A DNA stretch of 64,000 bases from a virus (IMGVR_UViG_3300021963_000063:32731-96730); one strand, 5' to 3'; shown: positions 2,323-64,000, counted from the first letter of the stretch. Translations and numbers: made by a program. The notes: a model not told the origin generated them from the sequence alone.

Positions 2323-2568
2323 TTATTTACCTTCCAATCTATTTATTTCATCATTAATGTAAAATATTGCTTTTTGCAAATCTTCAATTTGTCTTTTATC
2401 ATCTTTAATTCCAGCTCTCCAAAGATACTTGAAGGCATTACCAATGTTAAAATTTCTGTGACGAGTAATCTGAATGCATTCAACACCAGAGGGGTCTGAT
2501 GTGTAGTGCATTGGGTGGTTTACCTGATCAACTTCAATGTGAAACTTATCATTCTTATATTCGTGCAT
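2323..2568 (-). CDS. DUF3310-family protein
   Basis: Signature DQVNHPxHY...ECI...GNAFKYLWRAGxK...EDLQKAxFY. Confidence 0.85.
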   Translation of the reverse strand: MHEYKNDKFHIEVDQVNHPMHYTSDPSGVECIQITRHRNFNIGNAFKYLWRAGIKDDKRQIEDLQKAIFYINDEINRLEGK

Positions 2569-3598
2569 TTAAATCTCCATATATTTCTTTAATTCTAGGT
2601 ACAGCGTGTCTAGCCGTAACATCTTCCCAGTTCCATTCTTTATGAATATCAATTGACTTATTAAAAGAATCCTGGAATTCTTGTTCTCTATTATTATATA
2701 CCTCTCGCATATTATATCTTACTGAATCAATTTTTGGAAGGTATATTTGTCCTAAATAGGTATCTTGTAGGTAATCTGGAAGACCATCTGGCACATCTAC
2801 TAAATCACTTTCAATCTTATGAGATATAAAATCTTTATATTCTGCCCATTCCCAAGTTGTAATTGTTGGAAGTCCCGTTGCCATTGCTTCAAGTGGCATC
2901 ATACCAAAACCCTCCCCCCAAGAAGGGTATACTAAGCAGTGAGTATTATGTAGCATCTTTAAGTAATCATTAAAACCTAAAGACTGTTTTATTGTTTTAA
3001 CATTCTTGTATGCAACTTCTGGTGCAACCTTTTTACCTGTACCATCATCAACTAGGATTGTATGACCACGATCATATGCTTTAATAATCATAATTACATC
3101 TTCGTTATCTGCAAACTCTTCTAGGAAAGCTTCAACTGCTACCTGACCACCTTTACGAACATATGGCTCTCCAGTATGCAGGAAGAAAAACTTATCTTCT
3201 CTTAACTTTCTTTTTGCAGGAACAAACTTTCCAGATACTCCGTGTGGGTAAACATTGATTGGCTTATCAACTTTCTTTCTAAAAACATCTGCTGTCCATG
3301 TTGATGCAGCCCATACCTCATCTGCTTTGTTTAAGCACTCTGCCCAGTAGTCAGATATCTCTGTTGTCTCATGAGAGGAATAAGAAATATTATATGCTCC
3401 TGAAAACATAATGTGTTGATGTGGGGTAGCAAATGAAAGATTAACTTTAGAGTTTAGATCAAAGTTAGATAAATGAAAACCATTATCAACAAAGCCCTGA
3501 GCCATATTTGCAGCAGCAGTTGGGTATCCCATATCCTGCTTACTAAAACCTTTATGAAGATTAACTCCCGTAAGATTTAACTTTATCTTTTCTTCCAT
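2555..3598 (-). CDS. Glycosyltransferase, GT4 (GT-B fold)
   Basis: RKG motif and PSWGEGFGMMPLEAMATG (EX7E). Confidence 0.9.
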   Translation of the reverse strand: MEEKIKLNLTGVNLHKGFSKQDMGYPTAAANMAQGFVDNGFHLSNFDLNSKVNLSFATPHQHIMFSGAYNISYSSHETTEISDYWAECLNKADEVWAASTWTADVFRKKVDKPINVYPHGVSGKFVPAKRKLREDKFFFLHTGEPYVRKGGQVAVEAFLEEFADNEDVIMIIKAYDRGHTILVDDGTGKKVAPEVAYKNVKTIKQSLGFNDYLKMLHNTHCLVYPSWGEGFGMMPLEAMATGLPTITTWEWAEYKDFISHKIESDLVDVPDGLPDYLQDTYLGQIYLPKIDSVRYNMREVYNNREQEFQDSFNKSIDIHKEWNWEDVTARHAVPRIKEIYGDLNARI

Positions 3599-43640: not shown

Positions 43641-45209
43641 TTATGCTTGTTGTCTACCTTCACCTTGAGGTACTCTAGCACCTGTTCCAGTATCTGCTGC
43701 ATTGGCTTCTCTTTGCTGATCTCTTAACCTATTTCCATTAGCTTGGGCTCTTTGTTCTGCCTGACCTTGTGCAGTTAATTGCACTGGTTCATCGCCTGTT
43801 GGCAATGCAGTCATACCCTTTCTTGATCTAACTTCATTAGGAAGATATACTCCCATTCTTAGATAACGCTCATCAATCTTTGATTGAGTATCTTCATCTG
43901 TAAGAGTAAGTTCATTAAATTTAAGCTTAAACATATCAGTTTTTTCTGAAACAATTCTGTTTACAGACTTTTCTAAAGTATCTTGTTCTGGACGACATAC
44001 CTGATCCTTAAAGGTTCTATCTGCTTCACGAGCATTCGCTAAAGATATATTTTCAGCAGTTCCAACTTTTGAAATTGGAACACGATGTGCCATAAGAATT
44101 TCACTAAGGTTTGTTTTTCTGTAGTTATTAAATGAAGAATCTTGAATTCCATTTTCTACTGCTTCCATCTTTACATCAATCTTTTGACCATTCTCATCAC
44201 CAGGAATTGGGATTACGAGGGTTCTATGGGATTGACCACGAAGGTTATTTTGGAAGAATTCAAATAACTTTGCTTCTGCATCTTTTGATAACTTTGCTCC
44301 CTTGATCCAGAATATGTATCTGGGAGTTGCTTTGTTTTCAAAGTATTCAAGATTAAATCTTGATGCAAATTCTGTACCTGCCATTGCATTTTTTGCTGCA
44401 ACGATAGGTGGAATTCCGTAATAAGTGTTTGTTGGTGTGTAAGACTTTAAGTGAATAATTTCATTTGGACGAGCATCCGCACCAACTGGATTTGGTTGAG
44501 ATAGGTCTTGAAAGTTTCTAAAGAATACTGCTTTACCATTTACGATTTGAACAAATCCATCACGAAGTCTACGGATACGAACAGTTGCTGCAGGAATGTG
44601 ACCAATATAGCCAATCTCTCCTGTTACCTTACGACCAATTTCTAGGTATCCATTTCCAGTTGCTTCTTTATCAATGTATGCTTTTACAAGAGTTGCGGTA
44701 AATGTATCTTCATCATTTCTTGATTCTAGCCACTCTTCAATTTCAAGCTTAGTTCTATCAAGCTTGCGTCTTCTTCTAGAAAGTTGATCCTTGTCTGTGG
44801 TTTCTTCAAGCATCTGCAAAACCTGTAGTGTTGGCTCTAGATTATAACCAAGACCTACAATGTTTGCAACCTTAGCATTAATTGCAGCAAAGTTTGCTGC
44901 TGAAACTTCATAAATTCTTGATAGAGAAATTAAGTTATATGGAGGCTCTACAACATCAAATAGACCATAGCCATACTTGTCTGGAACCAGTTGCTTAGAT
45001 TCTGATTCATCTCCATTTAGAGAGTTTTGATCTGCTTTTTCTAACTTTCTTTTAGCATTTCTTTTAAAGTTATGACCAAGACCTGACAACTTCATTAAGT
45101 CATCTGGCTTCTTACTAAAATCATCTGTGTCGTTATTATTAATAAGAGAATTAGACTTTACTGTATCAAGTCCAATATCTCTACCACTAATTTCCTGCAT
45201 TTCGTGCAT
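43641..45209 (-). CDS. Portal protein
   Basis: TGNGYLE, EIIHLK, YYGIP, NEVR motifs. Confidence 0.92.
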   Translation of the reverse strand: MHEMQEISGRDIGLDTVKSNSLINNNDTDDFSKKPDDLMKLSGLGHNFKRNAKRKLEKADQNSLNGDESESKQLVPDKYGYGLFDVVEPPYNLISLSRIYEVSAANFAAINAKVANIVGLGYNLEPTLQVLQMLEETTDKDQLSRRRRKLDRTKLEIEEWLESRNDEDTFTATLVKAYIDKEATGNGYLEIGRKVTGEIGYIGHIPAATVRIRRLRDGFVQIVNGKAVFFRNFQDLSQPNPVGADARPNEIIHLKSYTPTNTYYGIPPIVAAKNAMAGTEFASRFNLEYFENKATPRYIFWIKGAKLSKDAEAKLFEFFQNNLRGQSHRTLVIPIPGDENGQKIDVKMEAVENGIQDSSFNNYRKTNLSEILMAHRVPISKVGTAENISLANAREADRTFKDQVCRPEQDTLEKSVNRIVSEKTDMFKLKFNELTLTDEDTQSKIDERYLRMGVYLPNEVRSRKGMTALPTGDEPVQLTAQGQAEQRAQANGNRLRDQQREANAADTGTGARVPQGEGRQQA

Positions 45210-48482: not shown

Positions 48483-50426
48483 TTATACAGCTTTAACGGT
48501 ACCAAAATCACTTATATCGCAAGCTCCAGCAACACATGCTAGATCTTGTACGCTTGTAGTAGCATCAAATGTTTCATATATTTCAAGCCATTTCCAATCA
48601 AGATCAGATGGAGTTTCTGAAAGAAGAACTTCATATTCTGATTTAGTAATTTCTTGATATGGTGCTTGTTGATATGTATGCTCTGAATAAGGTAAGAATG
48701 ATACACCTGACATTTCATCAATATGTTCAAATACCCATGCACCTACAGCCATCCATTCATTTTCTTTTACAGATACTGTAATAGAAGGCTTGTGTTCTGC
48801 CCAATGACGTTGGTATGTTAACCAAATATCTAAATGCTGAACTGCTGTTAAATCTTGACGAAGCGTTGCACCTTCTGGTGCTGCAATTGGGAATGTGAAT
48901 ACCATAGTATCATTTGGCTTCATAACATCTGGCTCATTCTTTACACCCATATCAACTAGGAAAGATGTAATTGGATCTTTCATATCTCCACGAATTGTAC
49001 GAGCATAATATTGTGAGTGCCATGGATGCATACCAGATGAAGCATTTACTAACTGGGACACCGTTCCTGATGGCTTAACACATGTAATTGCTGCTGCTTG
49101 ATTAATACCAATCTTTTCAGACCATTCTTTATTTACAACAACAGAATACTCTCTTAGTTCATCTAGCCATGCTGATAGTAAATCAACGCCCTGTGAACCA
49201 TTAAGAACTGGATGAGATAGCTGACCTGTAAGAGAAAGACCTAATAATCTTTCTTCCTCAGAATTCTTTTGCCAAATCTTTCTTAAGTACTTAAAGCGAG
49301 TAAATGTTGACTGAATAGTTCCAAGGATAGCAGCTAGTTCTACCTTTGCCTTAAGATCTTCAAGAGTGTCTGTATCACGAACAATAACCTCAGTAAGATT
49401 ACAGAACTGATTTGGTCTTAAGATAATTTCAGAACAAGGGTTAGTTCCAAAGTCTACTGTAGAATCTCTACGACCATTTTTTGCTGCAACTCTTTGTGCT
49501 GCTTCACGACTAAAGATTCCACGCTCTCCAGACTTTGAATCATATAGAGCCTTCCACTCGTCCATAAAAACTTCCATGGTTGGTTTTGTATTATAGACTG
49601 CTGAGTTGTTGGCAAGTGCTCTTTGACCGCTGTATTCCCACCAGGAACCAGACTTAGCTGCTGCCATGTTTCGGTCTTCCAAGTCTGATAGCGAGATCAT
49701 CGCTGAACGGCGAACACCGCCAACAACAACTACTTCTGCGATCTTACACATTAAGTCATGTGCCTCAAGAGGAGTCAACTTACGACCTGCTGCACCCTTG
49801 ATAAGAGAAACAGAAAACTTAAACAAACGATCTAGTGGGTCTGGACCTGATGCACGACCACCAAATGTTTTTAGACGAGCACCTGCTGGTCTAACTTGTG
49901 ACATATCCCATGAAGGAACCTGTCCTTGCCAAAGTAGGGCAAGTAATTCTTTTAGGGAACGTGCCCATCCAGCTTTTGAATCTTCTACAACAATAGTTGT
50001 ATCTGTAGTTTCAAAGTGTTCAGAAATTTCTGGTAATTGATTTACATATCTTGACTCAACAGAATATCCAACTCCAGTTCCACACATTAGAATATACATA
50101 CCTTCATCAAATGAACGTAGGCTATCTACTGGCATATACGCACAGTTGTATATACAAGTGCTATCTCTATCAAGTGCTGGTCCTGCTGTCATAAGACCAC
50201 GCATGGATGGCATAACTTTTGTTTCTAAAATAGCAGTACGGAGTTGCTGCTTAATATTTTCTGAAAGGGTAAATTCGTTATGCTTCTTAATAGCTTCTGT
50301 TACATAGTCCATGTAACGATCAACAGTTTCATCCCAGTTTTCTCTACGATTATCTTCTTCTCTCCATCTTGCATATCTTGTCTTATGGATTACTTGCTGG
50401 TATGCCGTTGGCAAAGAAACTGTCAT
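48483..50426 (-). CDS. nrdJ: Class II (adenosylcobalamin) ribonucleotide reductase
   Basis: VVVGGVRRSA, TNPCSEI, CVKPSGTVS, C-terminal CVAGAC; no nrdB in the window; GGAGTG SD before ATG 50426. Confidence 0.9.
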   Translation of the reverse strand: MTVSLPTAYQQVIHKTRYARWREEDNRRENWDETVDRYMDYVTEAIKKHNEFTLSENIKQQLRTAILETKVMPSMRGLMTAGPALDRDSTCIYNCAYMPVDSLRSFDEGMYILMCGTGVGYSVESRYVNQLPEISEHFETTDTTIVVEDSKAGWARSLKELLALLWQGQVPSWDMSQVRPAGARLKTFGGRASGPDPLDRLFKFSVSLIKGAAGRKLTPLEAHDLMCKIAEVVVVGGVRRSAMISLSDLEDRNMAAAKSGSWWEYSGQRALANNSAVYNTKPTMEVFMDEWKALYDSKSGERGIFSREAAQRVAAKNGRRDSTVDFGTNPCSEIILRPNQFCNLTEVIVRDTDTLEDLKAKVELAAILGTIQSTFTRFKYLRKIWQKNSEEERLLGLSLTGQLSHPVLNGSQGVDLLSAWLDELREYSVVVNKEWSEKIGINQAAAITCVKPSGTVSQLVNASSGMHPWHSQYYARTIRGDMKDPITSFLVDMGVKNEPDVMKPNDTMVFTFPIAAPEGATLRQDLTAVQHLDIWLTYQRHWAEHKPSITVSVKENEWMAVGAWVFEHIDEMSGVSFLPYSEHTYQQAPYQEITKSEYEVLLSETPSDLDWKWLEIYETFDATTSVQDLACVAGACDISDFGTVKAV

Positions 50427-53085: not shown

Positions 53086-54036
53086 TTATACCATTAAACG
53101 GGCTTCAACAGAATCAAAATGTTCTTTAATTACACGTTTCCATTCATATTCTAGATGAAGTCCTTCAGCCAAATGAAACTGATTTTCTTGAATAATATCT
53201 AAATTAGATACAGTATGCTGAATGAGTCTAATAAAGTCTTCATGGTCTGGTTTAAATTGTTTTCCAGGGTGATAGTGTTGCCATGGACTGTCCTCAAGAT
53301 TTGACATAATAGTTAGTCCTTGAGAATACTTTGTATAGTCTGCCCAACCATTTGTAATAATTGAGGGAGTTCCAGTAGCCATAGCTTGTAAGGGAATTAA
53401 TCCAAAACCTTCACCCCAAGATGGGTACAGCAAGACATCATGATAATGCATTAATGAAGCAACCTCTGGATAAGAAACTGTCTTATCAATAATCTTGATA
53501 TTAGGCTCGTTAATTTCTAGGTTATTATACTTTTCATATATTTTAATTGTAAGCTCGTGATCTTTAGATCCAGCGTAAAGTTCTAGGAAGGAATCAATAA
53601 CATGTGGAATATCTTTTCTAAGTGCTGGATGTCCCATACTTAAAAACTTTATCTTATCCGTTCTTTCTTTCCTTTTGGCAGGAAAAGTAGAATCTACTCC
53701 ATGCTTAAATACATATACTTCTTTATCCGTATATTGCTCTACTACACCTTTAACAAAATTGCTGGGTACCCAGATTTCATCACATTTTTCATTTATGATA
53801 TCTTGCCAACCATCTTGAAGGTTTGTGGATTCCCAAGCCATATATCCAACTTTACGGGAATTTGGGTTATCTGAAAATTTAAAAAATTTAGGAAGGTTGA
53901 AGCAGAACTCTACATCTGCATTTCTTTCAACAAGTAGTTTATGTCCAGTATCTAGGATATTACGCATTATCTTTGAGGTTACATAACCATAGCCAGTATG
54001 TACTGAGCTTGCTGCATTTGTAATGCTAAATTTCAT
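53086..54036 (-). CDS. Second GT4 glycosyltransferase
   Basis: RKD, PSWGEGFGLIPLQAMATG. Confidence 0.88.
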   Translation of the reverse strand: MKFSITNAASSVHTGYGYVTSKIMRNILDTGHKLLVERNADVEFCFNLPKFFKFSDNPNSRKVGYMAWESTNLQDGWQDIINEKCDEIWVPSNFVKGVVEQYTDKEVYVFKHGVDSTFPAKRKERTDKIKFLSMGHPALRKDIPHVIDSFLELYAGSKDHELTIKIYEKYNNLEINEPNIKIIDKTVSYPEVASLMHYHDVLLYPSWGEGFGLIPLQAMATGTPSIITNGWADYTKYSQGLTIMSNLEDSPWQHYHPGKQFKPDHEDFIRLIQHTVSNLDIIQENQFHLAEGLHLEYEWKRVIKEHFDSVEARLMV

Positions 54037-54677: not shown

Positions 54678-54699
54678 TGACTTTTCCTTTTCTGTTTGT

Positions 54700-54832
54700 T
54701 AATATACATCATATATATGTTATATATAATATATATATTAATATATTTATATATTAAATATAATTCTATATTAATATAATACTTAATTATTATATTTAAT
54801 TATATATAATTACAATTATACACAGAATTTTA
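54700..54832. other. Extremely AT-rich intergenic tract
   Basis: About 130 bp of nearly pure A/T with (AT)n runs. Confidence 0.8.
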
Positions 54833-55086
54833 AATAATGCAACGGCTTTTGAAAAAAAAGTTATATTGTTACAAAGTTGTTATTGAAACTCTTATACCCT
54901 GGATTAAAATATTTTATTTCGGCTTTTAATAAAATAAATATACACGGCTACGGCGATGGCGAAAATGAGAACTACAAACAGCACACCTATATGTTTAAAA
55001 CTCCCCTATTTGCTTCCTATGCCCTCACAGGGGCATTTAAGCAATAAGAGTTCACAAATATAAATTGCTGTGATATGATTAGAAAC

Positions 55087-56925: not shown

Positions 56926-56947
56926 AGTATGGCATAGGGGTATGACA
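56926..56947 (-). promoter_or_regulatory. PafBC/RecA-NDp-type promoter (variant)
   Basis: TGTCAT-ACCCCTATGC-CATACT. Confidence 0.65.
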
Positions 56948-57005
56948 ATTTCTGCCCTATTTTGGGCGTGTCGCATAATTATTTTTGTGATGTACACCAC
57001 ACTAC

Positions 57006-57134
57006 TTATACACAACCTTATACACATATGTGTATAACCTGTGGATAACCGCCTCGGGCATTTTTTCAGCCATTTGTCAATACGACACACCGTAAATCTC
57101 ACTGGAATTTTATCTGTGGATAACCTGTGGATTA
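57006..57134. promoter_or_regulatory. DnaA-box cluster 1
   Basis: TTATNCACA or its reverse at 57006, 57018, 57029, 57040, 57115; one mismatch at 57126. Confidence 0.8.
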
Positions 57135-57136
57135 TT

Positions 57137-57154
57137 GTTCACCTAATGTTCACC
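57137..57154 (+). promoter_or_regulatory. PHO-box-like direct repeat
   Basis: GTTCACC-taat-GTTCACC. Confidence 0.55.
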
Positions 57155-57232
57155 TAAACACACCCCTAAAACACCTAAAATTGTCAGCCCCCCCTGATAC
57201 GCTGAAAGCATAGAAAGAAAGGAGTGATTCAA

Positions 57233-57343
57233 ATGAAAAACTTACTAATCGTGGCTAAGTGCCAATGTTGTGAGGACAACTACCGTCTAGAAGAATTAGA
57301 TTCTGACGGTTACTGTTCAGGTTGTATCGAATACACCCTCTAA
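57233..57343 (+). CDS. 36-aa Cys-rich micro-protein
   Basis: MKNLLIVAKCQCCED...YCSGC; AAGGAG SD. Confidence 0.7.
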   Translation: MKNLLIVAKCQCCEDNYRLEELDSDGYCSGCIEYTL

Positions 57344-57400
57344 AACTGTCAGACCTATCTGATAGACTCAAACTACTAAACAAAAAGAAAGAGGTCACAA

Positions 57401-57586
57401 ATGACTTACTTAGTAACAAATAAGAGAGACGGTATCTCTAACGAATACATCTCTATTCATTCTGCCTTGCAAATGGTTGCAAGTTGCTATGACGGTGCAG
57501 GTATCACTTGCGAAATCGTCAATACAGAAACAGGGGAACAGGTAGAAATCTACCGCAACCCACTAACAGGTTGGAAGGTGGCTTAA
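57401..57586 (+). CDS. Hypothetical early protein
   Basis: ORF track; SD and promoter upstream. Confidence 0.7.
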   Translation: MTYLVTNKRDGISNEYISIHSALQMVASCYDGAGITCEIVNTETGEQVEIYRNPLTGWKVA

Positions 57587-57745
57587 ATGGCTTACACTAA
57601 ATTAAAGAATGCATCACTACTAGTAGATGCTATGAAACAATTGGAAGATGCGAAAGCAACTGCCCTAGAATTTCCTGCACACCAAAGAATGGTGGACTAT
57701 TGGGAAAATCAAATTCAAATCTTGACTAAGCGTGTCTACAGGTAA
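57587..57745 (+). CDS. Hypothetical early protein (52 aa)
   Basis: MAYTKLKNAS...; GAAGGTG SD. Confidence 0.65.
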   Translation: MAYTKLKNASLLVDAMKQLEDAKATALEFPAHQRMVDYWENQIQILTKRVYR

Positions 57746-57803
57746 AACTGTCAGACCCCTATGCTAGAATCAAACTACTAAACAAAAAAGAAAGGTGGTC
57801 ACA

Positions 57804-58019
57804 ATGACTACACTAAACACAAGAGAATTCATAGATTCTTACAATGCACTAAACAAGGCTAAGCACCCACTTAGCCACACCTCAAGTTCTGGCTATGTTG
57901 CATTAGCAACAATTCTAGAAATCTCAATTAACTGGAAACAGGGTATCAAGCAGATACAAGATACGCTAGATGAAAAATCTGCACAATGGAAAAACGAATT
58001 AGAAAGTTTGGTGAAATAA
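57804..58019 (+). CDS. Hypothetical early protein
   Basis: ATG 57804 after AAGGTGG. Confidence 0.7.
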   Translation: MTTLNTREFIDSYNALNKAKHPLSHTSSSGYVALATILEISINWKQGIKQIQDTLDEKSAQWKNELESLVK

Positions 58020-58020
58020 A

Positions 58021-58188
58021 ATGATGACACGCAAAGACTATGTAGCAGTCGCAGAAATTCTAAACTCTTACCACTTGGAAATTGAAGCACAAACTTTTGA
58101 GGATTTGCTTTCAGACTTCCAAACATTTTTCAAAAGAGATAATTCTAATTTTGACTTAACACGATTCAGAGATGCGGTGATGAAATAA
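58021..58188 (+). CDS. Hypothetical early protein (55 aa)
   Basis: MMTRKDYVAVAEIL...NSNFDLTRFRDAV. Confidence 0.7.
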   Translation: MMTRKDYVAVAEILNSYHLEIEAQTFEDLLSDFQTFFKRDNSNFDLTRFRDAVMK

Positions 58189-58332
58189 TGAATAGTTTTT
58201 ATTCTTGGATTTTAATTTTATCTTTAGCAAGTTTAGTTTTTTTAATCGGACAGGAAAAATAAAATGGAAATGTTTTTAGTTTTTATTTTTGGTCTGATCG
58301 CATTGGGAGTAATTTCAAAATACACAGACTAA
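58188..58332 (+). CDS. Two single-TM micropeptides (58188-58262, 58264-58332)
   Basis: MNSFYSWILILSLASLVFLIGQEK and MEMFLVFIFGLIALGVISKYTD; coupled stops and starts. Confidence 0.55.
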
Positions 58333-58393
58333 AAAAAATCCAAAGCTTCTGGGCGTGTTGACTTGACATTCCCAGAAATTTTGGCTCGGGGCG

Positions 58394-58468
58394 TTTTCCA
58401 CAACTTATCCACAGCTGTTAAGAACCTGTGTATAACTCACGGGAATTCTGGGGATAACCTGTGTATAA
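58394..58468. promoter_or_regulatory. DnaA-box cluster 2
   Basis: Perfect boxes at 58405, 58427, 58460; one mismatch at 58394 and 58449. Confidence 0.75.
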
Positions 58469-58471
58469 AAA

Positions 58472-58489
58472 GTTTACCAAATGTTTACC
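58472..58489 (+). promoter_or_regulatory. PHO-box-like direct repeat
   Basis: GTTTACC-aaat-GTTTACC. Confidence 0.5.
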
Positions 58490-58554
58490 TTAGACACGCT
58501 TAAAAGTCCCAAAATTGTCAGACCCCTCTGCTAAAGTGAAACTATAAATAAATA

Positions 58555-58612
58555 GTTAAGTATGAGCCTAGCAAATAAACCGCAAGGGTGAGCCTAGCAA
58601 ATAAGACTTAAC
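58555..58612 (+). ncRNA. 5'UTR RNA motif, twofold-symmetric double copy
   Basis: GUUAAGU...ACUUAAC encloses 2x UGAGCCUAGCAAAUAA joined by ACC-GCAA-GGG. Confidence 0.65.
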
Positions 58613-58632
58613 ACTAACGAAAGGAATACAAA

Positions 58633-58818
58633 ATGTATTCACTAACTATCGAAGAACTATTGGTGGGTCAGCGTTACACCTCTAGTCGTGGATTCGCTGG
58701 AGAAATTATCACTGCTGAAAAGCGTGAAGATACTATGAGCGATAGTGCTTATCTAATCTATGTCCGTCAAGACGGATTCCCTTACTACTTCTATTCAACA
58801 GTTGAGGTGACTGCATAA
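58633..58818 (+). CDS. Small beta-rich early protein
   Basis: ORF track; GAAAGGA SD. Confidence 0.7.
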   Translation: MYSLTIEELLVGQRYTSSRGFAGEIITAEKREDTMSDSAYLIYVRQDGFPYYFYSTVEVTA

Positions 58819-58973
58819 TGAATGAATTTATTTGTTGTTTTTGTGAAACAGAAATGAGTGAAGAACAAATTATTTGTTGCGACACTTACAAGGGTAAAAT
58901 GTCTTTGAAAGATTTTGAAGAAATTTATGGTTACACCTTAGTAACTCTTGACTACCAATACGAGGATTGCTAA
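58818..58973 (+). CDS. Acidic Cys-rich micro-protein (51 aa)
   Basis: MNEFICCFCETE...; TAATG coupling. Confidence 0.65.
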   Translation: MNEFICCFCETEMSEEQIICCDTYKGKMSLKDFEEIYGYTLVTLDYQYEDC

Positions 58974-59165
58974 ATGGGTTATGTAGAAATTTTTGAAATG
59001 AATTCCAATGGTGCAGGTTGGACAAATTTAGATGACCTGCCCGTTGGTGATGTAATCGAAATGCAATTTGAACTTTCAACTAATCCTAGCGTTCAATTGC
59101 TCTGTGCCTTTTGCCTTGTGCCAATTCCTAGTGGCTCAGGTAACGCCTGTGGAAAACATAAATAG
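58974..59165 (+). CDS. Hypothetical protein with C-terminal CxxC...CxxH
   Basis: ORF track. Confidence 0.65.
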   Translation: MGYVEIFEMNSNGAGWTNLDDLPVGDVIEMQFELSTNPSVQLLCAFCLVPIPSGSGNACGKHK

Positions 59166-59199
59166 TTATCCACAAGAGCTATCCACAGCCTGTGGATAA
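59166..59199. promoter_or_regulatory. DnaA-box cluster 3
   Basis: TTATCCACA 59166, CTATCCACA 59179, TGTGGATAA 59191. Confidence 0.75.
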
Positions 59200-59322
59200 C
59201 CGCCCGAGCACATTTTTATCCTGGTGTCAATTACGACATTACTAAAAAATCACGAGAATCACAGGAAAAATGTCAGACCCTTATGCTAGTATCAGAGATA
59301 CCTACTAAGAAATGAGCACTAC

Positions 59323-59856
59323 ATGACATACGCAACTCTATACCGCAACATTGCTAAGACCGCAACACCTGCACAAATTGAACAAGCCACGCAATGGTAT
59401 GCAGATGCAGAATTACTTGCTAGTGATCTAATCAGAATTTATCAGTCAAGAGGAATTAATCTAACACTAGAACATACCGCTAGTATCATTTCATCATTCT
59501 CACCTCGTCAGCGTTGGAATCGTAACGTAGTGCAAGCATTAGAATTTGCTCATGGAGGTGAGCCAAAAGGCTTAGGCAATAATCTACGCATGGCAAAACA
59601 ATCACAAGAAATTGGTTTCGATGCACTTAAGGGACTAAAGACAAATGCATTCGCTCGTGCAATTGCTGGCGATGATGATGCTATAACAATTGATGTGTGG
59701 ATGTGTTATGCAGCAGGACTAGATACCAATGCACCTAACAAAACACAATACAGAGAATTATCTGAGGCTGTAAGAATTGTTGCAAGCGAAATGAAAATGA
59801 CACCTAGAGTTATGCAAGCCCTGATCTGGATTATCTACAGGGGCAGTGCAGCTTGA
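59323..59856 (+). CDS. Helical protein resembling the HhH-GPD DNA glycosylase fold
   Basis: SPRQRW, GLKTNAF, ITIDVWM, MQALIW pattern. Confidence 0.5.
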   Translation: MTYATLYRNIAKTATPAQIEQATQWYADAELLASDLIRIYQSRGINLTLEHTASIISSFSPRQRWNRNVVQALEFAHGGEPKGLGNNLRMAKQSQEIGFDALKGLKTNAFARAIAGDDDAITIDVWMCYAAGLDTNAPNKTQYRELSEAVRIVASEMKMTPRVMQALIWIIYRGSAA

Positions 59857-59990
59857 CAGAGCCACCGAAAGGTGCTCGGGGCTTCCAGCTCCTTACCTAA
59901 TTACGACATTACTAATAACTCACAGGAATCACTGGAAAATGTCAGTGGTCTATGCTAAGATGATTTCATCATCAACCGAAAGGGTTTTCA

Positions 59991-60143
59991 ATGAAAACTT
60001 CAGTTCCAGATTTCGTTTCAGATTTCCAAGTTCAGTTTGAAGAGTGGGTTATGTCAATCCACGAAGACCTATGCACCTGTCAGGCTTGTGACCCAGAGTT
60101 TCACATGGAGTTGCTTGAAGAGTGGGAAGGTATGGTGTGGTAA
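59991..60143 (+). CDS. Acidic micro-protein (50 aa) with CxCxxC
   Basis: MKTSVPDFVSDF...; GAAAGG SD. Confidence 0.65.
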   Translation: MKTSVPDFVSDFQVQFEEWVMSIHEDLCTCQACDPEFHMELLEEWEGMVW

Positions 60144-60155
60144 AGGGCTCGGGGC

Positions 60156-60171
60156 TGTGACCTATCTCACA
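60156..60171. promoter_or_regulatory. CRP/GlxR-type site
   Basis: TGTGA-cctatc-TCACA. Confidence 0.6.
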
Positions 60172-60260
60172 TTTACGATTAAGTGAAATATCACGAAGAT
60201 CACGAGAATTGTCAGACCCCTGTGCTATGCTATGAGCATACCTACAGAAATGGAAATGCT

Positions 60261-60512
60261 ATGTTTACACTAAACAAAATTACTAAGAATGAAGAACTAA
60301 ACTATTTTGTATCTTCACACCCTTGCCCAAATTGCGATAGCACTTTATCAGTTGAGATTACTCCTGATAAGTTGTACGCATACAACCAAGGGGCTTATGC
60401 CCAAGATGTATTGTCTGCCTATGATGCAGGTGTGCGTGAGCGTTTCATTAGTGGAATGTGTGAAATTTGTTGGGGACTAATGTTTGACTTTGACGATGAT
60501 GATGAGGAATAA
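60261..60512 (+). CDS. Zinc-ribbon protein with acidic tail
   Basis: CPNC...RERFISGMCEICW; start downstream of promoter 60210. Confidence 0.7.
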   Translation: MFTLNKITKNEELNYFVSSHPCPNCDSTLSVEITPDKLYAYNQGAYAQDVLSAYDAGVRERFISGMCEICWGLMFDFDDDDEE

Positions 60513-60543
60513 AATTGTCAGACCTCTCTGATAAGGTATACCT

Positions 60544-60681
60544 ATGAATTACAAAACACCAGACCACCCTGAACGCTTGAGGGCTAGACTTGAACTACGC
60601 AGGTCAAGTGCCTCACAACCACACAAGTCCAAAAAGGCTTACACACGCAAGACCAAACACAAGAACCTACAAGGAGAATAA
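60544..60681 (+). CDS. Basic 45-aa leaderless protein (ArfA-like C-terminal motif)
   Basis: TAAGGT-N6-ATG; ...LELRRSSASQPHKSKKAYTRKTKHK. Confidence 0.65.
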   Translation: MNYKTPDHPERLRARLELRRSSASQPHKSKKAYTRKTKHKNLQGE

Positions 60682-60682
60682 A

Positions 60683-60979
60683 ATGGGAAGAAACTTCGCA
60701 ACAGAATTATCCGCTATGGATACTATGCCACTTGAGCAACAGATTAACTTGCACTTGCAATACAACTTCTATCCACCTGTACCGTCCTCAATGGTACAAC
60801 CTTGCATTGAAGCAATTGACGCTTATTGGGACGAGGACATTTATCGTGAAATAGAAATGCCATTAGGAGTTTCTTATCGTGGTAGTGATACTGCACCTGC
60901 TCACGCTATCGTTGAACAACACCGCTTAGATTCCTGGCTAAGCGAACTAGATGACTACTATGAAGATGAAGAGGTTTAA
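60683..60979 (+). CDS. Acidic hypothetical protein
   Basis: AAGGAG SD; start MGRNFA. Confidence 0.7.
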   Translation: MGRNFATELSAMDTMPLEQQINLHLQYNFYPPVPSSMVQPCIEAIDAYWDEDIYREIEMPLGVSYRGSDTAPAHAIVEQHRLDSWLSELDDYYEDEEV

Positions 60980-60981
60980 TT

Positions 60982-61188
60982 ATGTGGCAACTACAAGCAA
61001 ACTGTGATGAAACAAATACAGAACTATTCTTTAGCAAACTAGAAAGTAAAGTTGCTAAAGCAAAAGCCCTATGTGGCAGTTGTGCAGTTGCAGACAAGTG
61101 TTTGCAATTTGCATTAGATACAGAAATTGAATTTGGTATTTTTGGTGGAGTCACCGCAGACGAAAGGAAAGCACTTGTTTCAAACTAA
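60982..61188 (+). CDS. whiB: WhiB-family Fe-S transcription factor
   Basis: C...CxxC-x5-C and GIFGG turn. Confidence 0.9.
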   Translation: MWQLQANCDETNTELFFSKLESKVAKAKALCGSCAVADKCLQFALDTEIEFGIFGGVTADERKALVSN

Positions 61189-61366
61189 CTTAGTAGTGAA
61201 CTTTACCAATGGTGAAAGTAAAACTTATTTAGATGTTCACCCTGACCAAAGTTTCTTTATCCATAATGAGATGCTTACATTAGAAACGCTAAACGGTGAG
61301 ATGATTTGGTACATACCTGCCGTATCTGTAATTGACTACTACACAGAATGCGTGAGGGTTTCATAA
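61175..61366 (+). CDS. Hypothetical protein
   Basis: TTG start after GAAAGGA. Confidence 0.55.
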   Translation: MFQTNLVVNFTNGESKTYLDVHPDQSFFIHNEMLTLETLNGEMIWYIPAVSVIDYYTECVRVS

Positions 61367-61511
61367 CTTGACAAAAGCTCCGAAAGGGGCTCGGGGGGAT
61401 TTTTTTTGAAATGTCAATTACGACACGCTCAAAAACTCACTGAAAAAAACACTAGAAATTGTCAGACCCTTGTGGTAATGTATACACATAACCTACTAAG
61501 AAAGAGAAAAA

Positions 61512-61643
61512 ATGACAGACCAGCAACTTGTAGATAAAATTGTTGATTTATTTGATGCAGTCATTGACGAGAGTGCATTGGATAGATTATCAGAAGAAGA
61601 ACTAAAAGCAATTGACAAAATACTAACGGAAGCAGGTTACTAA
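61512..61643 (+). CDS. Acidic helical micro-protein (43 aa)
   Basis: MTDQQLVDKIVDLFD... Confidence 0.65.
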   Translation: MTDQQLVDKIVDLFDAVIDESALDRLSEEELKAIDKILTEAGY

Positions 61644-61644
61644 A

Positions 61645-61983
61645 ATGGGTGCAAGAATTAATTTCGTATTTGATGACGGAACAGATAGCCTAGTTAATCT
61701 TTATTCACATTGGGGTGAGACTGATTGGGAAAATGATTTAATAGGTGCATTGATACACGCACAGAAACGCAAAGGTGACTATTCATACTTTACTCGTATG
61801 GTTATCTCACACCTAATTAAAGACTATGTTTTAGATGAAACTGGTTTTGGTATCTATGCAATTAACCGTTCAGAAATTGCTAACAATTTTGATAAGACAG
61901 TTGTATTAGATTTAGTAAATAACACATTGACAGATTTAGACAATGATAAGACAGTTGAACTATATGGAAAGGTATTTGCATAA
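61645..61983 (+). CDS. Phage hypothetical protein
   Basis: MGAR...LYSHWG motif. Confidence 0.7.
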   Translation: MGARINFVFDDGTDSLVNLYSHWGETDWENDLIGALIHAQKRKGDYSYFTRMVISHLIKDYVLDETGFGIYAINRSEIANNFDKTVVLDLVNNTLTDLDNDKTVELYGKVFA

Positions 61984-62132
61984 TGGCAAAGATGAAAACA
62001 ATTGAAATGATTCTAATGGAAAACCACCCTGATGGAATTTACAATGAAGATGATGTATGGGAAGCAATTGCAGAAGCAAATGGCATGGACTATTCAGAAA
62101 TAGCAGACGGAGATTTAGCAGAATGGCTATAA
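61983..62132 (+). CDS. Highly acidic micro-protein (49 aa)
   Basis: MAKMKTIE...EDDVWEAIAEANGMDYSEIADGDLAEWL. Confidence 0.65.
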   Translation: MAKMKTIEMILMENHPDGIYNEDDVWEAIAEANGMDYSEIADGDLAEWL

Positions 62133-62254
62133 AACTATTTAATAAGAAACCAGAACTAATCGAAGATACATTTACTAAGTTAGATAGACTAATGAGTGAA
62201 ATGGCATCTACTGACATCTACATCGAATACCTTGAATTAAGGGAGGGTATGTAA
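62123..62254 (+). CDS. Hypothetical micro-protein
   Basis: MAIKLFNKK...; GGAG SD. Confidence 0.55.
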   Translation: MAIKLFNKKPELIEDTFTKLDRLMSEMASTDIYIEYLELREGM

Positions 62255-62459
62255 TGGCATTTGGTATCCTAATGGTATTGACTGTATACTCATTTATTGT
62301 TATGATAATGCTATACACAGACAAAGTTGAAAGCGAATGGGATAGTCAATAATGGAAATATTTTTTGGGGCAATTGGTCTGCTAATATTGTTTGGAGTGC
62401 TTATGTCTAATGGCAAGGGTACACCACACGATGAGGAAGATGGTTGGTATGATTACTGA
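62254..62459 (+). CDS. Two single-TM micropeptides (62254-62352, 62352-62459)
   Basis: MAFGILMVLTVYSFIVMIMLY... and MEIFFGAIGLLILFGVLM...; TAATG couplings. Confidence 0.6.
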
Positions 62460-62664
62460 GTATAAAGAAATAGATCAACTAATTGGAATGACTATTGAGC
62501 CAGGTGATATGGTAAAGCTGCCTAATGGTGATATTGTAAATATCATTCGCACTGAACCCACCGCAACAGGCTATGATTTATTCTTCTTAGATTTGTTTGA
62601 AGATGAGGAACTGGTTTACAGTTTAGACGACAATGAAAAGGTAACACTCCTAGAATTTGACTAG
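62449..62664 (+). CDS. Small SH3-like acidic protein
   Basis: IEPGDMVKL pattern; start MITEYK. Confidence 0.6.
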   Translation: MITEYKEIDQLIGMTIEPGDMVKLPNGDIVNIIRTEPTATGYDLFFLDLFEDEELVYSLDDNEKVTLLEFD

Positions 62665-62710
62665 GGGTGCTGCCCCGAGCTCATAACTTGCCAAATGTCA
62701 AGTTACGATG

Positions 62711-62726
62711 TGTGATTTAAGTCACA
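62711..62726. promoter_or_regulatory. CRP/GlxR-type site
   Basis: TGTGA-tttaag-TCACA. Confidence 0.6.
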
Positions 62727-62811
62727 GGAAATTAGATGTAAAAAAGACTAGAAATTGTCAGACCTATCTGCTAAGATGTTAGCATAACAACAACATAGAA
62801 AAGAGAAGCAA

Positions 62812-62967
62812 ATGGATAAAATCCAAACACCAACTGTTGGCTCACAGTTCACGACTGCTAAGTCAGGCGTAACAGGAACAGTTCAGGAAGTAATCAAAAA
62901 TACTACTGGCTCACTCCGTATTCGTCTTGATGTAAATGGTCAAGACCGTTGGACTACTGTAAAGTAG
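62812..62967 (+). CDS. Small beta-barrel-like protein (51 aa)
   Basis: MDKIQTPTVGSQFTTAKSGVTG...DRWTTVK. Confidence 0.7.
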   Translation: MDKIQTPTVGSQFTTAKSGVTGTVQEVIKNTTGSLRIRLDVNGQDRWTTVK

Positions 62968-63050
62968 TTTTAGTTATGGGGTCTGGCAAAACTGTCAGAC
63001 CCCTATGCTAAGATTATTTTAATAAACTACCTACAAATAAGGAGACCCAA

Positions 63051-63536
63051 ATGGGACTAGACATGTATCTTCGTGCGAATGAGTATGTATCACGCAACGA
63101 TTGGACTCGTAATGACAAAGGTGAATTAGTTGATAGCCCTAATTCATTGTTTCAACAAATTGTTGAGACTCTTGAGTTAGAAAACATTATTGACAATACT
63201 GGATTTGCTGGAATGAGCATTGACTTACCAATGGGTTACTGGCGTAAGGCTAATCAAATCCATAACTGGTTTGTTGAAAACTTAGCAGACGGTGTTGATG
63301 AATGTCAGCCAATTGTAGTTCGTAGAGAAGATTTAGAAACTCTAAAAGAATTGTGTATTCAAGTTCTTGCTGTGAAAGAATTAGCAGAAGATTTATTACC
63401 AAGTGCTTCAGGTTTCTTCTTTGGTTCAACTACCTATGATGAATACTACTATAGTGATTTGAATGACACCATTGGTATTATTAACAAGTGTCTTGAAAGC
63501 AAGTTTGATTACTTTGAATACCAAGCATCTTGGTAG
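63051..63536 (+). CDS. Phage hypothetical protein
   Basis: MGLDMYL...YWRKANQIHNWF...GFFFG...YQASW; AAGGAG SD. Confidence 0.8.
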   Translation: MGLDMYLRANEYVSRNDWTRNDKGELVDSPNSLFQQIVETLELENIIDNTGFAGMSIDLPMGYWRKANQIHNWFVENLADGVDECQPIVVRREDLETLKELCIQVLAVKELAEDLLPSASGFFFGSTTYDEYYYSDLNDTIGIINKCLESKFDYFEYQASW

Positions 63537-63594
63537 TAGGGCAGTGCCTGAATCCATAAACCTGCTACAGCCACGCAGGTAAAATAAGGGGGAC

Positions 63595-63630
63595 AGTCCT
63601 GAGTACCATACCCAGACTATAAACTGCTCA
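63595..63630 (+). ncRNA. H-type pseudoknot just 5' of the tRNA
   Basis: AGUC/GACU stem; loop UGAGUA pairs with downstream UGCUCA. Confidence 0.5.
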
Positions 63631-63634
63631 CCCT

Positions 63635-63708
63635 GGTCTGTTAGCTCAATTGGTTAGAGCACTACCCTGTCACGGTAGAGGTTGTGGGTTCAAGTCCCAT
63701 ACAGATCG
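63635..63708 (+). tRNA. tRNA-Asp(GTC), CCA not encoded
   Basis: Acceptor GGTCTGT/ACAGATC, D arm, CTACC-CTGTCAC-GGTAG, T loop GTTCAAGT. Confidence 0.95.
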
Positions 63709-63851
63709 CAAAAAGGGCTCGGGGCTCAGCTCCCTATTTGTCAATTACGACACGCCTAAAAATATCACGAAGTTTCTTAAAATAAGTATTGATTATTGTC
63801 AGACCTATGGTGTATAGTTAAACTATTAAACAAACAAACAAAGGAATAAAA

Positions 63852-64000
63852 ATGTCAATTGACCAAATTGAAATCATAGACGGCAAGGCTTCTTATGCTT
63901 CCTTGCGTGTACCTGCCTACCACCAATTAGGAACTGTCTTTCAGAATGAAGTTTCTACATCAGAGATGCTTTCACTAGCAAACCTTGACAACTGGAATGT
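63852..64000 (+). CDS. DUF932/DUF945-like protein (partial)
   Basis: ...RVPAYHQLGTV...EMLSLANLDNW N-terminal pattern. Confidence 0.6.
   Translation, partial: MSIDQIEIIDGKASYASLRVPAYHQLGTVFQNEVSTSEMLSLANLDNWN

Follow-up and report, generated by a model that had tools for sequence, protein, structure and literature searches.

A window of 64,000 nt (bases 32731-96730 of a 96,730-bp viral contig in IMG/VR, rated 90% complete) carries near one end a series of closely similar, promoter-like boxes, nearly all on the + strand and each placed ahead of small genes. Unless a contig position is named, coordinates refer to this window. On the basis of their sequence we consider it probable, at roughly 60%, that the 14 boxes of the contig are sigma-A promoters of small early-type phage genes, read through the host's own PafBC, the actinobacterial activator of the DNA-damage response. 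An earlier note, made from the sequence of the window, had put forward PafBC control of these genes.

The contig has a G+C content of 36% and encodes a siphovirus. Genes for a 2132-aa tape measure protein, portal, protease, capsid, DnaE and DnaB all lie on the − strand, as do those for a RecA-like protein, ribonucleotide reductase and two glycosyltransferases. Portal and DnaE are ~55-57% identical to those of Streptomyces BE-cluster phages (Stanwilliamsviridae), and two WhiB genes indicate that the virus is an actinophage. No tyrosine or serine recombinase that could serve as integrase was found in the contig, and this uncultured lake phage is probably lytic.

Fourteen boxes of one form lie ahead of small phage genes

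A pattern search for TGTCAG-N10-TAnnnT returned 13 matches in the window, compared to 1.07 ± 1.0 expected, and none of 100 shuffles reached 13. Twelve of the matches lie on the + strand between 57182 and 63818, at each of the starts that the earlier note had listed (57182 through 63797). The thirteenth, at 45067-45088 on the − strand, falls within the portal gene and is probably due to chance. An additional + strand site is found at contig position 146, outside the window, and the box cluster therefore spans the contig ends. We built a weight matrix from the 12 + strand sites of the window and the one at contig position 146, and applied it to the full 96.7-kb contig with a reporting threshold of 10 bits. 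It returned those 13 sites and a divergent variant on the − strand, and nothing else reached the threshold. All 14 sites fall in one 7.6-kb block. The variant (56926-56947; TGTCAT-ACCCCTATGC-CATACT; 25.9 bits), which had also been noticed before, is the only − strand site found by the matrix and reads leftwards into small open reading frames (ORFs) at 56853-56743 and 56740-56552.

The geometry of the boxes is strict. The hexamer is TGTCAG in 13 sites and TGTCAT in one, the GTC triplet is invariant in 14 of 14, and exactly 10 nt separate the hexamer from TAnnnT in every site. The conserved block, longer than first described, comprises 27 nt (rAAAt-TGTCAG-ACC-YYT-N-TG-M-TAnnnT). A TGn extension, with TG at positions −15/−14, is present in 12 of 13 sites. 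Columns at the canonical −35 distance are A-rich and unlike TTGACA, and the region has no excess of classical −35/−10 pairs (23 found, 24.8 expected). A start codon in the same orientation follows each site at 6-96 nt, mostly at 18-36 nt and with a GAAAGG-type ribosome-binding site; the site at 60516 is leaderless, its ATG lying 6 nt past the −10. Thus the placement of the sites 5' of ORFs, the invariant spacer, the frequent TGn and the missing −35, all remarked on in the earlier note, hold on closer analysis.

In Mycobacterium smegmatis, the PafBC motif obtained by chromatin immunoprecipitation sequencing is tGTCgg(N10)tA(N3)T, in which the 3' part is the sigma-A −10 and the 5' part is a −26 element that takes the place of the −35 (PMC8635444). 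Base-specific readout by PafBC is limited to the GTC triplet, via R46 and R50 of PafB, while the helix-turn-helix domain of PafC contacts sigma region 4, an arrangement called 'sigma adaptation' (PMC8635444). PafBC is switched on by binding single-stranded DNA and is inactive without it (PMC11804915). The phage sites carry every sequence feature of PafBC promoters (a −26 tGTC element, N10 to TAnnnT, no −35), and the likeness to the PafBC (RecA-NDp) motif pointed out earlier is borne out in core, spacing and lack of a −35. A domain search of the entire contig found neither a WYL domain nor a sigma-70 region 2 domain, which extends the earlier statement that the window holds no WYL gene and covers the rest of the contig. 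As the phage has no obvious factor for these boxes among its genes, reliance on host PafBC is most likely.

The boxes are conserved in related aquatic phages

Sites of this kind, co-oriented and close to one end of the contig, number 12, 11 and 7 in three large relatives whose portals are 60-70% identical. After each site come a short leader, a ribosome-binding site of the Shine-Dalgarno type and an ATG. The hexamer, TGn and −10 are kept in these phages and the 10-nt spacing holds in 30 of 30 sites, while spacers and flanks vary. Their arrays mix two flavours of the box, TGTCAG-ACC and TGTCAG-TGG. The ACC flavour occurs in at least 120 IMG/VR stretches, several of them with 5-10 co-oriented copies, and related portals are encoded on at least 590 IMG/VR contigs. 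When 50,697 phage records were searched by megablast, none matched the region. DNA of the phage is present in lake, freshwater, estuary, plankton and some 'marine' metagenomes (runs of 10 studies).

Metagenomic contigs that match parts of the early region also show how it varies. Of the contig joints listed, from two DNA metagenomes and one RNA library, 7 of 15 begin inside the 22-nt boxes, which make up 3.8% of the stretch. Since contigs leave and rejoin within boxes, cassettes between boxes are gained and lost among related phages, and the repeated promoters double as joints for this exchange. Joints at 57365>58559, 58534>59267, 59288>60256 and 62774>63639 are examples, in which contigs leave and rejoin within boxes at 57347-62777. 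In one freshwater RNA library, contigs are 90-95% like parts of the early region; because they derive from relatives, and because the library may contain DNA, they show neither transcription nor its starts. In the promoter-early stem-loop (PeSL) cassettes of T4-type phages, repeated early promoters, each after a terminator hairpin, flank small gene cassettes and serve as joints for gain and loss. This parallel concerns genome mosaicism and not the transcription factor, and the promoter type and phage family differ.

Candidate hosts carry PafBC and the same promoter type

We reached actinobacterial genomes via a 16S signature and sampled 401 genomes of the class. Ten of these are unpublished (G016, G024, G033, G039, G041, G045, G052, G272, G313 and G382) and enter only the tally of WYL domains and the tRNA comparison. 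WYL domains were found in 398 of the 401 genomes. When 30 small genomes (1.0-1.5 Mb) were searched, recA was found in 27, and TGTC[AG]G-N10-TAnnnT precedes it in 26 of these. In 19 complete genomes of 1.3-1.5 Mb, with a G+C content of ~47% in the six sampled, the recA box is TGTCAG, and most read TGTCAG-TGG-N4-TG(C/A)-TACCTT. An SOS box, TCGAAC-agat-GTTCG, lies directly 3' of that promoter. At the recA loci of these 19 genomes (L215-L233), the PafBC-type −10 abuts the LexA box, TACCTT-TCGAACagatGTTCG, so that one short stretch joins both damage controls. The phage has only the PafBC half of this promoter and no SOS box in its early region: the actinobacterial form TCGAAC-N4-GTTCGA has no match there at up to two mismatches, and the single SOS-box match in the window, at 50067, is at chance level.

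What we take to be the target of the acI-specific probe AcI-852 occurs once, inside the 16S gene, in four of four genomes tested and does not occur in a Rhodoluna genome; the identification of the lineage as acI is a strong lead and not proof. The acI-type genomes encode tandem orthologues of PafB (E 4e-39) and PafC (E 9e-22), as judged against the chains of 7P5X. These keep R46, R50, K52, R56, A43 and Y76, and W70 is replaced by F. PafBC together with this promoter type on DNA-damage genes was thus found in candidate host lineages only.

A strict form of the motif, TGTCAG-N7-TGnTAnnnT, gave 33 hits in the 19 genomes, compared to 6 for a control pattern, which amounts to 1-4 per 1.4-Mb genome. 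It stands ahead of recA, carD, a leaderless operon with an OGG-like DNA glycosylase, an MmeI-type enzyme and a vWA gene, and the genes behind it are often leaderless, starting 6-7 nt past the −10. Its rarity suggests that it marks a special regulon, and on the same count we rejected TGTCAG as a promoter form in general use in the lineage. The RecA of the phage proved too distant to serve as a bridge to host recA loci.

In one acI-type genome (G149; L264 and L265; G149:C1:438000-470000), a 28-kb island contains 8 of the 11 TGTCAG-N10-TAnnnT sites. The island encodes GmrSD, two C5 methylases, an SNF2 helicase, an Hsp70-like protein, trypsin-like and subtilase peptidases and TPR proteins. Many starts in the island are leaderless, 6 nt past the −10, and similar clustering of sites is seen in genomes G104, G242, G170 and G361. 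The island looks like a defence island under PafBC-type promoters, and because the motif clusters in it, the same alarm may drive host defences and phage early genes. The literature that we searched links PafBC to phage resistance and to defence-associated WYL regulators. The GmrSD-type enzyme of this candidate host lineage is encoded at L265:7091-9007, and its family cuts glucosylated DNA. The glycosyltransferase genes of the phage lie at 2555-3598 and 53086-54036, both on the − strand. Together, these enzymes may reflect an arms race over DNA modification.

Proposed mechanism and its relation to known systems

We propose that the host housekeeping RNA polymerase with sigma-A reads the boxes, with TAnnnT and the TGn extension serving as the −10. 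TGTCAG, at about −26 and in place of a −35, would offer its GTC triplet to the PafB half of host PafBC, which, holding single-stranded DNA, would sit between the DNA and sigma region 4 as in sigma adaptation. Transcription would start ~7 nt after each TAnnnT and cover one to several small genes, until the next hairpin terminator. The trigger could be single-stranded DNA arising from entry or infection, from nuclease attack on the phage DNA, or from early replication. We infer that PafBC would bind the boxes, that the genes behind them would be the first expressed, and what would activate PafBC during infection. The earlier note had gone further, taking the first-expressed timing as given and suggesting that the boxes may titrate PafBC away from host repair genes; the timing is better worded as a prediction, and the titration was an overreach.

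To our knowledge, PafBC-type promoters have been known only from chromosomal DNA-damage genes, and we found no report of such promoters on a phage in the literature searched. The phage boxes resemble PafBC promoters of the recA P1 type (tGTC(A/G)G at about −26, exactly 10 nt to TAnnnT, no −35 and an invariant GTC). They differ from the known chromosomal ones in standing, in 14 copies, ahead of small phage genes, in having an upstream A-tract and mostly AC(C) instead of TG past the hexamer, and in lacking an adjoining LexA box. The middle promoters of phage T4, with a MotA box at −30 and a sigma-70 −10, are likewise a phage class with a −10 and without a −35, in which an adaptor bridges the box and sigma region 4. 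The study of the PafBC structure itself likens the system to the 'sigma appropriation' of MotA and AsiA (PMC8635444). The T4 adaptors, however, are phage-made and the class is a middle one, whereas here this task would fall to an alarm protein of the host itself. The domain search that returned neither WYL nor sigma-70 region 2 in the contig is the one that bears on a phage-encoded adaptor; it did not extend to homologues of MotA or AsiA.

Temperate phages have LexA-controlled promoters, whose SOS boxes couple induction to DNA damage via repressor release. As with these, transcription of the present phage would be coupled to the DNA-damage signal of the host; unlike them, it would use an activator route, in a phage without integrase and without LexA boxes. 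We dropped a temperate reading with damage-coupled induction, as no tyrosine or serine recombinase was found. If the proposal is true, this would be a clade of lytic phages that run their early programme on a sigma adaptor encoded by the host and responsive to single-stranded DNA, a host-supplied counterpart of T4's own MotA and AsiA. The clade is abundant in lakes and estuaries, and its prey are probably among the commonest freshwater bacteria. The same promoter type on a host defence island would tie the actinobacterial DNA-damage activator to phage defence.

Points against the proposal and alternative explanations

Several observations weigh against control by PafBC. Ten of 13 phage boxes go on as TGTCAG-AC(C), whereas host boxes mostly read TGTCAG-TG, as does the RecA-NDp consensus. 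The AC form makes the box a GTC-A-GAC inverted repeat, to which a dimeric protein other than PafBC could bind, and the A-tract ahead of the phage box is not present in host promoters. These two features do not exclude PafBC, since the structure has no base-specific contact outside GTC. In actinobacteria, a strong −10 with a TGn extension may need no activator, and if a lytic phage starts from an activator that healthy cells keep off, one must further assume that infection itself makes single-stranded DNA. Streptomyces phage BillNye, a relative, has no such site, so that the trait belongs to the low-GC aquatic branch and not to the entire family. The G+C content of the phage is ~11 points below that of the acI genomes sampled, although BE-cluster relatives are likewise far below their hosts. 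The early WhiB has no confirmed hit in species genomes, and both WhiB genes have homologues on phage contigs only. The comparison of tRNAs and transfer-messenger RNA does not discriminate: the best match overall is a tRNA-Thr at 92% in a 1.7-Mb genome, and in acI-type genomes the figures are 82-84% for tRNA-Thr and, over part of its length, up to 90% for tRNA-Met.

Also on this side of the account is a second recurrent element, TTACGA(A/C)C-N12-14-(A/C)TCAC(A/G)G, with 8 intergenic + strand copies compared to 0.57 expected. It often starts with (T)GTCAATTACGAC, and another TCAC lies 9 nt on. Five copies (59231, 59901, 60173, 61418 and 63745; there is also one at 62702) are located 37-52 nt upstream of TGTCAG boxes, just past terminator hairpins, and three (contig positions 830, 1026 and 1328) occur on their own, 10-20 nt ahead of small ORFs at contig 830-1328. 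The element could represent a second promoter class or a regulator site. Moreover, beyond the contig end come another 4.7 kb of the + strand block, which contain a single box. For both reasons, the statement in the earlier note that these promoters drive the whole early region is too strong.

The boxes could be ordinary extended −10 promoters of sigma-A that need no host activator, with TGTCAG(ACC) as the operator or site of a phage-encoded or virion-carried regulator, used for shut-off or boost, and with a likeness to PafBC that is coincidental or convergent. We regard this as unlikely. It would account for the TGn-TAnnnT found in 12 of 13 sites, in a phylum in which most promoters lack a conserved −35 (PMC8635444), for the inverted repeat in the prevailing TGTCAG-ACC form, which differs from the host TGTCAG-TG, and for the second conserved element upstream of five promoters; the many early ORFs of unknown function could include a DNA binder. 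Yet the box equals the host recA box in six of six letters and at an equal distance to the −10, which is unlikely by chance, and the TG and AC flavours are freely mixed within the arrays of relatives. A phage-made factor, furthermore, cannot start the first transcription unless it is packaged, and the contig lacks a detectable WYL or sigma-70 region 2 domain. Within the PafBC proposal, the AC flavour and the A-tract leave room for a second binder, which may be a phage repressor that ends the early phase.

That the promoters are of the PafBC type and yet delayed-early or middle, firing once replication, recombination or breakdown of host DNA supplies single-stranded DNA, or that their main role is to sequester PafBC as decoys, with infection started from another promoter class, we think very unlikely. 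PafBC is indeed inactive without single-stranded DNA (PMC11804915), and the occurrence of TTACGA-N12-14-TCAC both upstream of five boxes and alone before three ORFs would fit a second promoter class. The 14 phage sites also stand against 1-4 strict-form sites per candidate host genome. On the other hand, small orphan genes at a genome end, opposite to the replication and structural genes, are the usual early layout, a promoter role of the bipartite element is putative, and titration depends on affinities and copy numbers. It would be most surprising if the repeats served mainly as recombination joints at which related phages shuffle cassettes, without a special transcription factor. The share of joints that begin in the boxes (7 of the 15 listed, in 3.8% of the stretch) does speak for such a use, but recombination at repeated promoters would be a consequence of the repeats and no alternative to promoter function; conservation of the −10, the spacing, the orientation and the start-codon distance argues likewise.

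Control of the boxes by host PafBC could also be part of a wider contest, in which phage and host compete for one alarm. In acI-type genomes, PafBC-type promoters stand on repair genes and on the defence island of roughly 30 kb, which also has an MmeI-type gene, and the phage would exploit the alarm that they answer to. In this quite unlikely extension, entry of phage DNA, or its restriction, would make single-stranded DNA and turn PafBC on. The alarm would fire the 14 phage promoters first, and their number would draw PafBC off the few host sites. The early WhiB of the phage, expected like other WhiB proteins to bind sigma region 4, would then end the phase.

The individual predicted promoters and other features of the region

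The + strand ORFs behind the boxes are small and mostly orphans; they include a DUF7178 protein, a 68-aa WhiB protein and members of several PHROG families of unknown function. Promoter 1 (57182-57203), a box of TGTCAG-CCC flavour, precedes an ATG at 57233. Promoter 2 (57347-57368) is followed by an ATG at 57401 and by ORFs at 57401-57586 and 57587-57745, and promoter 3 (57749-57770) by an ATG at 57804. The top weight-matrix score belongs to promoter 4 (58516-58537), which has a 96-nt leader and ORFs from 58633. Downstream of promoter 5 (59271-59292) lies the DUF7178 gene (59323-59856). Promoter 6 (59940-59961; ATG at 59991) is the only TGTCAG-TGG, or host-flavour, box of this phage. An ATG at 60261 follows promoter 7 (60210-60231). 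The leaderless promoter 8 (60516-60537; ATG at 60544) heads a predicted operon that includes the early WhiB-family gene (60982-61188, + strand; 68 aa; Pfam PF02467, E 6e-22). Promoters 9 (61460-61481) and 10 (62756-62777) precede ATG codons at 61512 and 62812, respectively. Promoter 11 (62993-63014; ATG at 63051) has tRNA-Asp downstream (63635-63709), the only hit in an Rfam search of the region. Promoter 12 (63797-63818; ATG at 63852) is the weakest and is without the TGn register. All 12 are on the + strand.

The leader of promoter 4 (58538-58632) contains two direct copies of TGAGCCTAGCAAATAA and may be a small RNA or a regulatory leader. Similar words, GTGAGCCT...GCAAATAA, come after boxes in one relative (L254). 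A common A/C-rich word, AAACTA(C/T)TAAACAAA or CCTACTAAGAAA, follows directly after the −10 in the leaders at 57369-57400, 57771-57803 and 63819-63851, among others, which points to a conserved sequence that is transcribed first or that enhances translation. Just upstream of promoters 1 and 4, at 57020-57140 and 58400-58470, are clusters of perfect or near-perfect DnaA boxes (TGTGGATAA / TTATCCACA).

Size and G+C content would have fitted a crAss-like phage with a virion RNA polymerase, a reading that we rejected, as the 2132-aa ORF is the tape measure protein. To the left of the early block, at 54690-54840, ~150 nt of extremely AT-rich DNA with TATA repeats lies between convergent/divergent small genes.

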